Shown here: in pieces, positions 9,750 through 18,438 of the stretch
Layout of the letters: every line of letters starts with the position of its first letter
How positions within the stretch are numbered: the first letter of the stretch is position 1
Source of the DNA: Escherichia coli
GTDB lineage: Bacteria > Pseudomonadota > Gammaproteobacteria > Enterobacterales > Enterobacteriaceae
DNA: 64,000 bases
NCBI RefSeq assembly: GCF_046105845.1
Contig: NZ_CP151004.1
Strand: one strand, 5' to 3'
The notes under the pieces: generated by a model
Databases searched by the model: none
The model's input: only the letters and a program-made list of their open reading frames with translations
Told to the model about the DNA's origin: nothing
Translations under genes and position numbers: made by a program

Positions 9750-9824
9750 ATTTATTAGATCAGGTGTGACCTGACCCATCTTTGGCACAGAGCCAAACCT
9801 GAACTGACGGACCGCTCTGTGCCA

Positions 9825-10130
9825 TTACCTGACGTTGTATTCTTTTATGTTAACACCCTTGATACTGTATATACCTGTCCGCTTAATTCGCTTGCCCTTT
9901 TTATTCGTAATAGTTGCTGTAAGTGTACTGCAGCGAATGGAATGACGTTCATCAATCACCAGCCGAATTGCTTCTGAAGCATCTTCCACCTCTAGAAGGT
10001 CGTGAGTCTTATTTAAGCCGAATGGAACAAGGTGGAAGGCCGTTTTTCCAGATGATTTTCTGGTTATTTTTACTGGATACAACACATCACCACTTTTATG
10101 GATTAATTCAAGCTGTTCAATGTAAATCAT
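9825..10130 (-). CDS. Hypothetical protein, 101 aa, in AT-rich segment
   Basis: ORF with AGGAA Shine-Dalgarno 8 nt upstream of ATG; about 40% GC by eye; no recognised family. Confidence 0.4.
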   Translation of the reverse strand: MIYIEQLELIHKSGDVLYPVKITRKSSGKTAFHLVPFGLNKTHDLLEVEDASEAIRLVIDERHSIRCSTLTATITNKKGKRIKRTGIYSIKGVNIKEYNVR

Positions 10131-10217
10131 GGCAACTTTCCTTCGTTTATCTGCATGAATATATAAACCGAAAATAGGAGATGCAATACAAAAGCTGTGG
10201 AAATATCAAATAGCCTC

Positions 10218-10574
10218 TCAATTTGGCAGACAGCGTCTGCCAAATCTTTGCCGATGGGAATTCTGCAGAATTTCAACATGTTGATAAAAAAGGTAAAAAA
10301 GCTTCATTTGGCGTAAGTTTTTTGCAGAGACCCCACGTTTATACCGTCGACTTAAATCCTGCGATAACCGATCAATCAGCTGTGCAGCATAAGCCGCTCT
10401 TGCCTCGCCGCCTTGTTCAAATTCGACAATTCGTCGGCCAATTTCCCAGTATGTGGCGGTCATTAACGCGTTAACACTACGTACCGTTTCCGTCCGGGCG
10501 CTATCGACCAGGTGAATAATACCGTCGTGGATTTGCTGGTAGCCTGTTGAGGTTCTCTCTGAGAGCGATTCCAT
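10218..10574 (-). pseudogene. N-terminal fragment of DUF1016/YhcG-like (PDDEXK nuclease family) protein, truncated
   Basis: 118-aa ORF with TYWEIGRRIVEFEQ...NLRQMKLFYLFY resembling the N-terminal domain of DUF1016 proteins; full-length members about 340-375 aa; C-terminal nuclease domain absent. Confidence 0.5.
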
Positions 10575-10727
10575 TATCTGTCCCTTTATATGGCGCTGCG
10601 TTGAATAATGGAATCAGCTATACGCCGGGCATCTACCGGTAACAATCCAGATGAGCGTATTACATTGGTTTTCTTCACATTATGCGAGGCACCTTCCAGC
10701 GAGGTGTCACGTTGTGGTGAAGATAAA

Positions 10728-10758
10728 TCAAAAAAGGCCGGAGCGGGCGTATCCGGCC
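10728..10758 (-). terminator. Intrinsic terminator ending the five-gene operon
   Basis: Minus strand reads GGCCGGA-TACGCCCGC-TCCGGCC followed by T-run, 8 nt after the VWA gene stop. Confidence 0.8.
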
Positions 10759-15286: not shown

Positions 15287-16887
15287 AAAGTAGTTTCTCC
15301 GACAAAAAACGAATGAAGTTGAATTCGGTGCGCCAGCGTGGCGCTCAGGGCAGTAAAGGCTGCCTCGCAATAAGGCGTTTGTTGTGCGTCGTGCGGCCAC
15401 TTTTCAATGACATCATTGAGGACTTCGGGGGCCAGCAGGCAGGCGAAATCACTCATCACATGGCGCAGGGCGTAGTCAAAGCGCGCGGAATCATGTTTCA
15501 CCCAACGGTGCAGCTCCGTGACCATTTGCTGGCTCAGGCGCAGGCTAAAGAGCGACGCATCCGGCGGTAACAGGCTGATGTAGCGATGTAAATGTTCGCC
15601 GCCCACCACTGAGAACAATGACCGTAACATCGGCTCGTGTTCTTCTACAGGCAGACATTGCAAAAGCTCAAAGGCGTTAATCTTCACGCCTGCAGTATGA
15701 TGAATGCTCATTCCGACGGGCAGCATGGCGAGAAACGCCTGCGCCCACTGCGGATTTTTTTCGCGCAGTACGGCGTGATACCAGGCGCGCAGTAGCGCCT
15801 CCTGCCAGTCGGTTTTCCCGGCCCAGCGCAGCAGTTCAACGGGGGTAGCCTGCAGTTGCGTTTGCCACCAGTCGAGCGGAACCGCTGCAACTATCTGATA
15901 CAGCCACCATGCGCGCTGGCCCAACTTTTCGCCTTTGGGCTTAGTTTCTTCCAGCGCATCGGCCTTCCACTCTGGTAAGAACGCCTCCGGGGCATCAAGG
16001 GCGACGCGCAGCGTTTTTTCTCCGCGCAGTAAACCTTTTCGCCGCGCAAGCCAGCTCTCAGGATCGGGGGAGGAATTGAGCAGCGGCGCTAACCTGGACT
16101 TCATGCGCCAGACCCAGGCGCTTTCTGGCAGACAAAGCAGTAATCGTGCCGCAGTTTGCCGCACCTCTTTGCTGCGATCGGATAATGTCTGTTCCAGAAA
16201 GGCTTCGTCGTATTGGGAGATCTCCACTTCCAGCACAGCCAGCAGCTGTGCGCGTTCGCGGGCATCCAGCGAACTCATCTCCTGCGCCAGCCGATCGCGA
16301 CCCTGTTCCGGGGCGCGAATGCGCATTTGCGTCAGATATTGCAGACGCTGTTCGGACGTGCCGTGCAGCCACATTTCTTCATCCAGCGGAGCGTCAACGG
16401 AGGCAAGAAAATAGCGCCAGTCGGCGTTAATCTGCGCCAGCCAGCGCCCGCGAGCGCCGAGGACATTGGGCAGAATGCCGCGTATTGATGGATTTTGTAC
16501 GCCGTAATTCAGCAGTGCCGGTAACAGCAGGGGCGGAGAAAGAAGCTGACGCTGGACCAGGTGATCAAGCGCTGACCACAGTAAACGCGGCGGCCCTTCT
16601 GCCAGCAACAGATGCAGCAGTCCCGCAAAAGCCGGGTTGTTTATTGGCTCGGCATTTTCTTTATCGATTTCCGGCAGCGGTGCGGGGTCAATCGCCTGCG
16701 GCTCCCAGCCAGCCAGATGGCAGAGTGCCAGAACGCCCGCCGAGCGCAGTAGCTGTTGCTCTGCAGATGTGTTATTCGCCAGTTCAGACAGTAGCAGCCC
16801 AATCTCACTTTGCGACGCTGACGGTGTAAACGCTTTTTTGTCTGTGCCGAGTAGCGCTGTGCGGGTTAAATTTTTCCATTCGTTCAT
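15283..16887 (-). CDS. Hypothetical protein, 534 aa (possibly DUF5691-like)
   Basis: Start placed at Met 8 of track ORF (16887): GGAGG SD 8 nt upstream and ATGA overlap with SWIM gene stop; Leu/Ala-rich, no recognised catalytic motif. Confidence 0.7.
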   Translation of the reverse strand: MNEWKNLTRTALLGTDKKAFTPSASQSEIGLLLSELANNTSAEQQLLRSAGVLALCHLAGWEPQAIDPAPLPEIDKENAEPINNPAFAGLLHLLLAEGPPRLLWSALDHLVQRQLLSPPLLLPALLNYGVQNPSIRGILPNVLGARGRWLAQINADWRYFLASVDAPLDEEMWLHGTSEQRLQYLTQMRIRAPEQGRDRLAQEMSSLDARERAQLLAVLEVEISQYDEAFLEQTLSDRSKEVRQTAARLLLCLPESAWVWRMKSRLAPLLNSSPDPESWLARRKGLLRGEKTLRVALDAPEAFLPEWKADALEETKPKGEKLGQRAWWLYQIVAAVPLDWWQTQLQATPVELLRWAGKTDWQEALLRAWYHAVLREKNPQWAQAFLAMLPVGMSIHHTAGVKINAFELLQCLPVEEHEPMLRSLFSVVGGEHLHRYISLLPPDASLFSLRLSQQMVTELHRWVKHDSARFDYALRHVMSDFACLLAPEVLNDVIEKWPHDAQQTPYCEAAFTALSATLAHRIQLHSFFVGETTL

Positions 16888-18206
16888 TGTGCGCCTCCGG
16901 TTGCCCAAATCACGCTACCGGCAAGCCAGGCGCTACAGGGCGTCAGTTGCTGACCGTCCCATTCCCCCATTAGCATAAACGGCGCGCCGCCGCTGGCAGC
17001 CAGTAACCGCCAACCCTCGTCCGATGACAGGAGCGTCGGTAAGTGCTGGCCCTGTGTCGAGACGAATCGCCAGCCGCTCTCGTGCGGGTAAATCAATATT
17101 TCGCTTACTCGCAGCGGCAGAGGCCATTGCCAGGGATTCGCGCTAAGCCGCTGCGCCATGTCATGCAGCGCGTCCGGGAGGGGTAATTCTGCAAGCGGGA
17201 ATCTTTCACCGCGGGTAAACGGCTCCACAACCCGCGCCCGTAGCGGTGATGCGCCAGGGAAAAAGGCAAGCGCGCCCTGGCAGACTTGCCCGGTGATAAA
17301 GTGCTGGGGAAAGTTTTTACCACCGTGTGAATAGTCCAGCAGTAGCGCGGTGCGGTGGCTCTTTTCTCCGTACAACCAGACCCGGCGTCGCCACAGATTA
17401 TTCTCTTCTTGCGCGCTTTGACCTAAGATCTGCCAGTTATCGAGGCAGGTTAATCCGTCAGTGACGTCGTGTTTTTCCGGGGGTATTCCCAATGCCGCAT
17501 GGAGATCGCTAAGTTGTGCCGGGGATAACATTTGTTGCTGGCGCCAGGCGTCAATAATCAGCTGTAGCTGCCCCAGTTCTTTGCACAGGCTCGATGGCCA
17601 TACCTCGGCGGTAGTAAAAAGAGTGGTCAGATTGTTCAGGCGAGCGGCAATTCCCGGTAGTTGGGCGTCGACCATGCGGGCGGCGATCCCGGCAAAAGGC
17701 AACTGTTGTGCAGAGATCTGCGCCAGACCGTGGCGGATCAGGTCGTGCATCCACTGTTCGAGGAAATCCAGCCCCGCCGTCATTTTTTGGTTACGTGCCG
17801 CTTCCCGTTTGGCGGCAGCCTGCGGGTCGGCAGCTTTTGCCTCAGCCTGCTCTTTCTTCTCTTCTTTGTGAACCGCCCGCTGCTGGCGCGAGGTTAGCCA
17901 CTCGCTTACCCATTCCGGCGGCTCGCCAGCGGTGAAACTTGCGGTGTGTTGCACCTGGAGCAAAAGCAACGCAAGGCTATGTTTACAGGGGAATTTACGG
18001 CTGGGGCAGGAACATTTACAGGCCAGATCCTGTCTGTCGATTCGTACCTGATAAGGGCGGGAGCCGCTACCTTTACACTCTCCCCAGAAGGCGGTCTCGC
18101 TATATCCCAGCGTCGGCCATTTTGCGGGGGCAACCAGGCCACGAGCCGCTTTAACCGAGGCGTCATCGGGCGCCAGGGCTTGCACTGATTCAACGGTCAG
18201 TTCCAT
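16884..18206 (-). CDS. SWIM zinc-finger domain protein
   Basis: 440 aa; SWIM-type CxCxnCxH signature in ACKCSCPSRKFPCKH near N-terminus; Lys/Glu/Ala-rich linker; C-terminal domain unknown. Confidence 0.75.
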   Translation of the reverse strand: MELTVESVQALAPDDASVKAARGLVAPAKWPTLGYSETAFWGECKGSGSRPYQVRIDRQDLACKCSCPSRKFPCKHSLALLLLQVQHTASFTAGEPPEWVSEWLTSRQQRAVHKEEKKEQAEAKAADPQAAAKREAARNQKMTAGLDFLEQWMHDLIRHGLAQISAQQLPFAGIAARMVDAQLPGIAARLNNLTTLFTTAEVWPSSLCKELGQLQLIIDAWRQQQMLSPAQLSDLHAALGIPPEKHDVTDGLTCLDNWQILGQSAQEENNLWRRRVWLYGEKSHRTALLLDYSHGGKNFPQHFITGQVCQGALAFFPGASPLRARVVEPFTRGERFPLAELPLPDALHDMAQRLSANPWQWPLPLRVSEILIYPHESGWRFVSTQGQHLPTLLSSDEGWRLLAASGGAPFMLMGEWDGQQLTPCSAWLAGSVIWATGGAQ

Positions 18207-18380
18207 TACAATTCTCTATTGGCGTGGGGAAATCGATGGGGTCAAGGAGGCGTTAAGCAAAGCAGGAGGAGACTGTTTTCCGTAACAGCGTATTGCGCGT
18301 CCATCGCAAATTTGTAGTGAGTATAGCGGGCGGTAAATTCAGGAAACAATGGCGGATAGCGGAAAGTGTAGTTTTTCGGA

Positions 18381-18428
18381 AAAAGATAACTTTATCCCGT
18401 GTAACCCGTTTTAAGCGGGCTACACGGG
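18381..18428 (-). terminator. Hairpin downstream of gltD (possible partial terminator)
   Basis: Inverted repeat cccgtgta...tacacggg 11 nt after gltD stop, followed on minus strand by T-rich ATCTTTTTCCG. Confidence 0.5.
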
Positions 18429-18438
18429 AGGCTGCAAT

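Follow-up and report, generated by a model that had tools for sequence, protein, structure and literature searches.

A variable interval between gltD and nanQ of Escherichia coli carrying an uncharacterised five-gene YehL-type module

The chromosomal interval between gltD and nanQ (yhcH) is occupied by different genes in different Escherichia strains. Here, we describe its contents in a stretch of 64,000 nt from the Escherichia coli contig NZ_CP151004.1 (GCF_046105845.1), which is referred to throughout as the window. Reading from gltD, the interval contains a cassette of five co-directional genes encoding a SWIM zinc-finger protein, a DUF5691 protein, an AAA_5 ATPase, a DUF5682 protein and a VWA protein, followed by a truncated copy of yhcG and by an AT-rich segment of 470 bp with an orphan open reading frame (ORF) of 101 amino acids (aa). 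We present evidence that this segment is probably a composite of two independent polymorphisms, the cassette and the yhcG truncation, at a hotspot where cargo is exchanged by recombination. We also describe the distribution of the five-gene module across phyla, and weigh what its components suggest about its function.

Gene content and breakpoints of the interval

The five ORFs of the cassette are closely packed, and neighbouring ORFs overlap by 4 nt at two junctions and by 11 nt at a third; the five genes therefore constitute one operon. A first-pass annotation of this DNA, made from the letters alone, had placed a five-gene operon, a DUF1016 fragment and an AT-rich orphan ORF between gltD and yhcH, and all three were confirmed (Table 1). 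The cassette has a GC content of 57.4%, compared with 40.2% for the 470 bp beside nanQ and 50.8% for window positions 24439-64000. As had been noted at the outset, no mobile-element gene is visible in the accessory segment: the ORF list contains no integrase or insertion sequence (IS) between gltD and nanQ, a scan of window positions 1-30000 found no tRNA gene, and no terminal direct or inverted repeats were found. Thus, none of the features of a classical genomic island or integrative element (an integrase or transposase, a tRNA or att target, flanking direct repeats) was detected. The locus has no match to an Rfam family, and scans for promoters and terminators returned signals no better than those in shuffled sequence.

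The breakpoints were mapped by aligning the window to five comparator haplotypes. Homology to the other haplotypes is lost precisely at the nanQ stop (9750) and is regained precisely at the gltD stop (18439). On the yhcG side, approximately 125 bp 5' of yhcG are common to all yhcG-bearing haplotypes, which diverge beyond that point. The breakpoint at the gltD stop and the end of the common yhcG upstream region therefore define the limits of the operon cassette that are given in Table 1. The position of the cassette is taken in O157-type genomes by 58 bp, the gltD terminator hairpin, and in K-12 by the gltF-yhcADEF block of about 7 kb, which is bounded by these two breakpoints; in most E. coli there is just a 58-bp terminator between them. 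The hairpin after the gltD stop differs from one haplotype class to another, with one hairpin per class. An 8-bp word, CTTCCAGC, is present at both ends of the cassette (10693-10700 and 18444-18451). Because the 64-kb window holds 12 copies of this word, its presence at the ends may be a coincidence, or it may reflect microhomology used at insertion.

Table 1. Features of the gltD-nanQ region, in window coordinates
Feature	Position	Strand	Remarks
nanR-nanA-nanT-nanE-nanK-nanQ (yhcH)	block ending 9749	+	
nanQ (yhcH)	9285-9749	+	conserved left flank
470-bp segment	9751-10220		stands for 3' 722 bp of yhcG
101-aa orphan ORF	9825-10130	-	inside 470-bp segment
yhcG remnant	10218-10574	-	DUF1016_N part, 118 codons
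yhcG upstream (promoter) region	10575-10699	-	common to all yhcG-bearing haplotypes; distal end is the cassette breakpoint
Five-gene cassette	10700-18438	-	7739 bp
VWA protein gene	10766-11935	-	Pfam VWA_CoxE
DUF5682 protein gene	11925-14174	-	
AAA_5 ATPase gene	14192-15286	-	MoxR family, YehL type
DUF5691 protein gene	15283-16887	-	
SWIM zinc-finger protein gene	16884-18206	-	
Cassette-specific leader	18207-18438	-	232 bp; haplotype-specific hairpin 18395-18429 directly after gltD stop
gltD	18439-19857	-	conserved right flank; gltB-gltD both on minus strand

The DUF1016 fragment is, by alignment, the N-terminal third of yhcG itself. Window positions 10221-10269 and 10262-10699 align to yhcG codons from about 1 to 135 and to the upstream region of the gene in N96, O157 and K-12. 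The first-pass statement that gltF, yhcADEF and yhcG were all missing therefore holds for gltF and yhcADEF, whereas yhcG persists as a remnant. Relative to intact yhcG, this remnant lacks 44 bp internally, and the 3' part of the gene has been exchanged for the AT-rich segment. The two aligned pieces overlap by 8 bp (10262-10269), suggesting microhomology; remnants of the type found in strain 30COLEC apparently lack the 44-bp deletion, their aligned interval being about 52 bp longer. The remnant matches the PADLOC candidate family PDC-S02. The truncation of yhcG, together with the 101-aa ORF, is a polymorphism independent of the operon; it is present in 725 genomes and occurs operon-free in 30COLEC.

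The 101-aa ORF bears the PGAP label 'transposase' (WP_000639208.1). It has no match in Pfam, NCBIfam, PHROG or PADLOC and no recognisable transposase domain. Its family comprises 37 clusters, which belong to Enterobacterales wherever the host is named and carry the same NCBI label. Relatives with 82-89% identity were found in Enterobacter and Yersinia (positions 5001-5306 of comparison loci L066 and L068). The relative in Enterobacter cloacae is located at the edge of a lambdoid prophage remnant, and that in Yersinia canariae adjoins a phage integrase beside icd, in an integrase-bearing island. The ORF may be what remains of an element that disrupted yhcG at its 3' end, in an event independent of the operon.

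Arrangements of the interval and their frequencies

The gltD-nanQ interval is a variable locus, with at least seven arrangements in Escherichia. The two genes are directly joined in UM146, and are separated by yhcG in O157, PCN033 and E. fergusonii, by gltF-yhcADEF-yhcG in K-12, and by truncated yhcG and the 101-aa ORF in 30COLEC. The remaining three arrangements contain the five-gene operon, which lies between gltD and one of three different neighbours on its yhcG side: intact yhcG in N96 and Escherichia sp. HH26CH, a tiny yhcG fragment with two hypothetical ORFs in SMS-3-5, and the yhcG remnant with the 101-aa ORF in the window.

The frequency of these arrangements was counted over 5426 complete E. 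coli genomes. The 3' part of yhcG is kept in about 3710 of them, gltF-yhcAD is present in 1237 (23%), the 470-bp segment with the 101-aa ORF in 725, and the five-gene operon in 33 (0.6%). In all 33 carriers the operon is chromosomal, single-copy and located between gltD and nanQ, with 97.6-98.2% identity to the window. The exact combination seen in the window, operon with truncated yhcG and 101-aa ORF, has no copy among the complete genomes; the haplotype is found on at least 24 public contigs. The similarity at the locus is far beyond chance. In 29 of the 33 carriers, the gap between nanQ and the operon consists of two hypothetical ORFs (190 and 48 aa) and a tiny internal fragment of yhcG, as in SMS-3-5 (comparison locus L006, 2614-3301) and likewise in locus L007; the 190-aa ORF of this gap has no PHROG match.

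In related species yhcG is intact at the site in E. fergusonii, is represented by an N-terminal remnant only in E. albertii, and is a remnant between gltD and nanQ in Klebsiella huaxiensis. The E. fergusonii, E. albertii and E. marmotae loci that we examined lack the five-gene operon. In E. marmotae, the interval holds another chaperone-usher fimbrial operon, of seven genes, and a DUF2544 gene, without yhcG (comparison loci L063-L065, 9546-16025). Because gltD-yhcG-nanQ is the commonest state in E. coli, and because yhcG or its remnants occur in related species, this layout is probably ancestral. The K-12 fimbrial operon and the five-gene operon are then likely to be derived, alternative cargo inserted between the same two breakpoints. 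The K-12 block, a beta-class chaperone-usher set, resembles the cassette in its interval, its pair of breakpoints, its orientation, its accessory nature and its size of about 7 kb, and differs from it in its unrelated, fimbrial gene content and in its higher frequency (23% of complete genomes as against 0.6%). By genome counts gltF-yhcADEF is itself a minority accessory insertion. Among the enterotoxigenic E. coli and K-12 strains studied previously, the yhc locus was restricted to phylogroup A (PMC5216030).

These counts bear on how the segment was first interpreted. The K-12 gene order had been given correctly (gltD-gltF-yhcA-yhcD-yhcE::IS5-yhcF-yhcG-nanQ), and the description of the locus as variable stands; the operon is not, however, a replacement of the K-12 set, which is itself an insertion in the minority of genomes. 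The first-pass annotation had reckoned with the converse case, in which the arrangement in the window is the common ancestral one and that of K-12 is derived. The K-12 arrangement is indeed derived, but that of the window is not ancestral, given that the operon occurs in 33 of 5426 genomes. Thus the observation is partly confirmed and its first interpretation partly supported. Since the K-12 cargo is just one of several and gltD-yhcG-nanQ is the likely ancestor, comparison with K-12 alone misleads by suggesting a replacement, and it overstated the oddity of the locus. The segment represents a genuine hotspot polymorphism, for the most part an ordinary one of a familiar kind, with an uncharacterised module as its cargo; the operon is already annotated in public genomes, including SMS-3-5.

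The five-gene module, its relatives and its predicted function

All five cassette ORFs are full length, and their ratios of nonsynonymous to synonymous divergence (dN/dS) within E. coli range from 0.01 to 0.54. The lowest values are those of the AAA gene (0.01-0.06) and the VWA gene (0.03-0.11), and that of the DUF5691 gene reaches 0.54. By this measure all five genes are under purifying selection, and the operon is intact and selectively maintained. Pfam family PF07728 (AAA_5) is recorded for products identical or orthologous to the AAA protein, whose Walker A motif, GVPGTAKS, varies little among 35 sequences. The protein matches midasin AAA domains and NorQ by sequence, and shares 41% identity with K-12 YehL across 350 of 364 residues, with a VWA gene two genes downstream. 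These similarities identify it as a YehL-type MoxR AAA+ ATPase, for which ATP hydrolysis and a hexameric ring are predicted. NCBIfam yielded nothing beyond sub-threshold matches to MadB and GvpN, to which the similarity is weak and far under the family cut-offs. For the VWA protein, which is 37% identical to K-12 YehP, VWA_CoxE and VWA_2 are recorded in Pfam, and the motifs DQSGS, GGGTD and SD, of the type that forms a metal ion-dependent adhesion site (MIDAS), are conserved in 35 sequences including YehP.

The other three proteins are less readily placed. The SWIM protein has a CxCxnCxH motif whose residues C65, C67, C74 and H76 are invariant in 18 sequences; Pfam PF04434 is recorded for it, weakly in some loci. 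The DUF5691 protein is the fastest-evolving component and is predicted to be an all-helical, HEAT/ARM-like solenoid (predicted local distance difference test score, pLDDT, 84.6). The DUF5682 protein matches PF18934 over its full length (E = 8.2e-267, model positions 1-727 of 727), and the family comprises about 4400 clusters at 50% identity among 1.84 billion representative proteins. Its predicted structure (pLDDT 85.6; predicted template modelling score 0.79) consists of an N-terminal alpha/beta domain, which has the parallel beta-sheet core expected of the TIKI/TraB/ChaN/erythromycin-esterase superfamily, followed by helical repeats. Residues G10, R12, H13, E37, E82, E151, R186, E187, G210 and H213 are invariant in 23 homologues, and several of these directly follow predicted strands. 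The set G10-x-R12-H13, E37 and G210-x-x-H213 recalls the His/Glu catalytic residues of the TIKI, TraB, PrgY, ChaN and erythromycin-esterase proteins; HopBA1 and ChaN are members of the TIKI superfamily, the active members of which use a set of two histidines and two glutamates (PMC6254334). In contrast to these proteins, DUF5682 has a tail of about 400 residues of helical repeats fused to the domain, and there is no match at the level of sequence: hmmscan against Pfam-A found no TraB-family match (for example, to TraB_PrgY_gumN) in the DUF5682 protein. From the structural model we infer that the N-terminal domain is a TIKI/TraB-like hydrolase or binding domain, with a putative equivalence of catalytic residues. 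Sequence and profile searches of the PDB found no relatives of the SWIM, DUF5691, DUF5682 or VWA proteins.

The closest known counterpart of the cassette is the yehLMPQ system of K-12, whose products are the AAA protein YehL, the DUF5682 protein YehM, the VWA protein YehP and the SWIM protein YehQ. Both systems place AAA_5 ATPase, DUF5682, VWA and SWIM-finger proteins in one operon, and the window DUF5682 protein is 27% identical to YehM, in addition to the similarities to YehL and YehP given above. They differ in gene order (SWIM-DUF5691-AAA-DUF5682-VWA in the cassette as against AAA-DUF5682-VWA-SWIM in yeh), in chromosomal site, and in the presence of DUF5691, which has no detectable counterpart in yeh. 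The SWIM proteins of the two systems share the CxC...CxH finger only (hhalign probability below 1%). YehQ was rejected as a homologue of either the SWIM or the DUF5691 protein of the cassette, since the zinc finger alone aligns. On this comparison, the cassette is a divergent second copy, a distant paralogue, of the yehLMPQ-type system. In the K-12 record NZ_CP025268.1, yehQ is annotated with an internal stop, and two large DUF4132 genes beside yehLMPQ are annotated as frameshifted pseudogenes (comparison locus L048, 4512-11948 and 17137-19137).

The module is widespread. It was found in Gamma- and Betaproteobacteria, Desulfovibrionaceae, Verrucomicrobia, Bacteroidales, Chloroflexi, Planctomycetes, Armatimonadota and other phyla, and about 28 of 33 loci retain the order SWIM-DUF5691-AAA-DUF5682-VWA. 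Over these loci, identity to the window proteins is 62-94% for AAA, 52-89% for VWA, 30-68% for SWIM and 26-56% for DUF5691; the ATPase is about 71-73% identical to Bacteroidales copies, far more conserved than its operon partners. No sixth gene or neighbour recurs across phyla, and the module is therefore self-contained. A scan of GTDB species representatives found it in no other Enterobacteriaceae representative, the exact 8-residue patterns used limiting the sensitivity of the scan. Alistipes putredinis, a Bacteroides metagenome-assembled genome and Bacteroides gallinarum have in common a stretch of 12.36 kb with the whole module at 99.7% DNA identity (comparison loci L028, 2785-15144, L029 and L030), which indicates a recent transfer of the module between families. 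The module also occupies a second enterobacterial site: in a metagenome contig of enterobacterial appearance, the five genes are located between ygjQ (DUF218) and ygjR (comparison locus L046, 6027-13488).

An AAA_5/MoxR ATPase gene near a VWA gene with a MIDAS site is also characteristic of RavA-ViaA, NorQ-NorD, CbbQ-CbbO and CoxD-CoxE, and recalls midasin (Rea1); the cassette AAA protein matches both midasin and NorQ, and its VWA protein matches VWA_CoxE. MoxR-VWA systems act as chaperone-like remodellers or as machines for cofactor insertion (PMC3893208). Unlike these pairs, the cassette adds three conserved partners, SWIM, DUF5691 and DUF5682, and has no client enzyme gene nearby and no conserved neighbour. 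Judging from domain content, the five proteins would form an ATP-driven remodelling or processing complex, in which the MIDAS site of the VWA protein would dock a partner on the AAA+ ring, choice of the client would fall to the helical-repeat and SWIM proteins, and the TIKI-like domain of DUF5682 would hydrolyse or hold that client. A MoxR-VWA remodelling or processing machine with scaffold and selector subunits would thus be the most economical mechanism.

It is also possible, though we consider it unlikely, that the module acts against phages or in some other biological conflict, the gltD-nanQ interval being a small defence hotspot, with SWIM and DUF5691 as sensors, AAA+ and VWA as transducers and the TIKI-like hydrolase as effector. 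The sporadic occurrence of the operon in E. coli (0.6%) at a cargo hotspot, the membership of its neighbour yhcG in PDC-S02, the recent transfer between Alistipes and Bacteroides, and the copy at the ygjQ-ygjR site are consistent with such a role, as is the much faster evolution of SWIM and DUF5691 than of AAA and VWA. Modules of vWA and MoxR proteins have been described as the cores of conflict systems (PMC7159879, PMC10910872). Among these, the vWA-MoxR-VMAP systems (Kaur et al. 2020, PMC7159879) resemble the cassette in combining a MoxR ATPase and vWA core with adaptors, and in being sporadic and horizontally transferred. They differ from it in that SWIM is not mentioned in that work, and in that no VMAP and no recognised effector-associated domain (EAD) was identified in the cassette, as far as the Pfam annotation of its five proteins indicates. 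A search of PADLOC-DB v2 gave no hits for four of the five proteins, and matched the AAA protein to IetA at an E value of about 1e-3 on the P-loop only, which is short of a convincing match. In Bilophila, K. huaxiensis and the ygjQ contig, the module is flanked by genes with housekeeping or regulatory roles rather than by defence islands, no neighbouring gene recurs across phyla, and 62-94% identity of the ATPase across phyla would be unusual for genes in an arms race. A bolder version, in which the operon is an unrecognised, widely transferred conflict or defence system whose AAA+/VWA switch takes direction from the fast-evolving SWIM and HEAT-like proteins and licenses a TIKI-type protease or esterase, and in which the interval with yhcG is an integrase-free Escherichia defence hotspot, is doubtful.

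PHROG matches of the DUF5682 and VWA proteins do not add to the case for defence. A phage origin based on them was rejected when tblastn of the phage records traced them largely to host yehP DNA. The matches to phrog_30700 and phrog_31592 apparently derive from flanking host yehP in the VT1-Sakai prophage record (AP000400.1, 2-880). The other match in the phage collection is MT835988.1, an unannotated 'Bacteriophage sp.' contig from human faeces, which aligns to 98% of the VWA protein with 44% identity.

Origin and spread of the cassette

Starting from the probable ancestral layout gltD-yhcG-nanQ, the cassette would have been acquired horizontally and would then have passed from one E. coli lineage to another through homologous recombination in gltBD and nan on either side of it, with no dedicated mobility gene. 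Independently, the 3' two-thirds of yhcG were exchanged for the 470-bp AT-rich relic with its orphan ORF. Over an 8-kb housekeeping stretch, the window shows 99.5-99.6% identity to E. coli strains including PCN033, which is operon-free and has the layout gltD-yhcG-nanQ; this identity rules out a non-coli Escherichia as the source of the window. Identity to the PCN033-type strain falls to 92-97% in nanQ, gltD and parts of gltB, and the nan, gltBD and operon segments range from 91 to 100% identity per 500 bp. Within the operon, identity to other carriers swings over the same range of 91-100% per 500 bp, and adjacent genes differ by a factor of more than ten in synonymous divergence, dS (AAA, 0.13-0.20; DUF5682, 0.011-0.018). 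The gltD allele is unusually divergent from those of other E. coli (dS 0.15-0.21). This mosaic divergence points to repeated homologous recombination between old, diverged alleles, which would explain the transfer of the cassette without mobility genes. The 500-bp block of gltB at 21001-21500 is just 92% identical to its closest core relative, and the essential metabolic genes beside the hotspot (gltD and gltB; window 18439-22000) carry deeply diverged alleles.

An alternative, which we regard as improbable, is that the operon is not an acquired cassette at all, but an old resident that descended vertically from the common ancestor of Escherichia and Klebsiella and was lost in almost all lineages. 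In K. huaxiensis, the interval between gltD and nanQ likewise contains the five genes in an identical order, the identities of its operon proteins to those of the window (56-94%) are within the range of the flanking orthologues (62-93%), and approximately 84 bp of the leader upstream of the SWIM start are homologous as well. The insertion points differ, however: the operon of K. huaxiensis is separated from gltD by the yhcG remnant, whereas that of E. coli has yhcG on its nanQ side. The pieces of yhcG in K. huaxiensis (comparison locus L009, 5342-5679) are 77-78% identical to residues 164-240 and 326-369 of E. coli YhcG. Independent insertions into a permissive interval are favoured over vertical residence because yhcG lies on opposite sides of the operon in the two species and because the ygjQ-ygjR copy places the operon at another site in an enterobacterial contig. 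In addition, the operon is absent from the E. fergusonii, E. albertii and E. marmotae loci, and among 5.8 billion protein clusters identity above 60% was confined to the Escherichia cluster, K. huaxiensis and a few contigs. The GC content of the cassette, moreover, is 6.6 points higher than that of window positions 24439-64000, which we count as evidence of foreign origin.

It is very improbable that a decayed site-specific mobile element, such as a prophage or integrative island, delivered the segment and left the 470-bp piece and its ORF as a last relic: the 'transposase' label of the ORF family and the relatives beside the Enterobacter cloacae prophage remnant and the Yersinia canariae integrase near icd would fit such an element, but the 470-bp piece (725 genomes) and the cassette (33) are independent, with the combination in none of the complete genomes, terminal repeats, integrase and tRNA are lacking, the cassette breakpoints coincide with those of an unrelated cargo, and the ORF has no recognisable transposase domain.

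Several points weigh against the account that we prefer, that of a horizontally acquired cassette spread by recombination and encoding a MoxR-VWA machine. The sole possible trace of the original insertion mechanism is the word at the cassette ends, which may be there by chance, and the divergence of the K. huaxiensis operon, which resembles that of its flanking orthologues, would also fit long-standing vertical inheritance at the site. The assignment of TIKI-type catalysis to DUF5682 comes from fold similarity and invariant residues, and Pfam listed DUF5682 alone above threshold, together with two chance hits. Our literature searches found nothing on DUF5682 or DUF5691 and nothing specific on a combination of SWIM, MoxR and VWA proteins; YehL is cited just as the name of an uncharacterised MoxR AAA+ subfamily (PMC3893208, PMC11432383).

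These observations have consequences for how the locus is studied. K-12 is a poor reference for the gltD-nanQ interval, in which gltF-yhcADEF is one of several alternative cargoes. The interval provides a clean example of cargo exchange at fixed breakpoints without mobility genes, and as such is useful for studies of recombination-driven hotspots. Beyond the locus itself, the residual interest lies in the module: an uncharacterised, strongly conserved five-gene system of YehL type with a predicted TIKI-like hydrolase. Natural strains with and without this second copy, SMS-3-5 among the carriers, offer a tractable route to the function of the YehL subfamily of MoxR ATPases.

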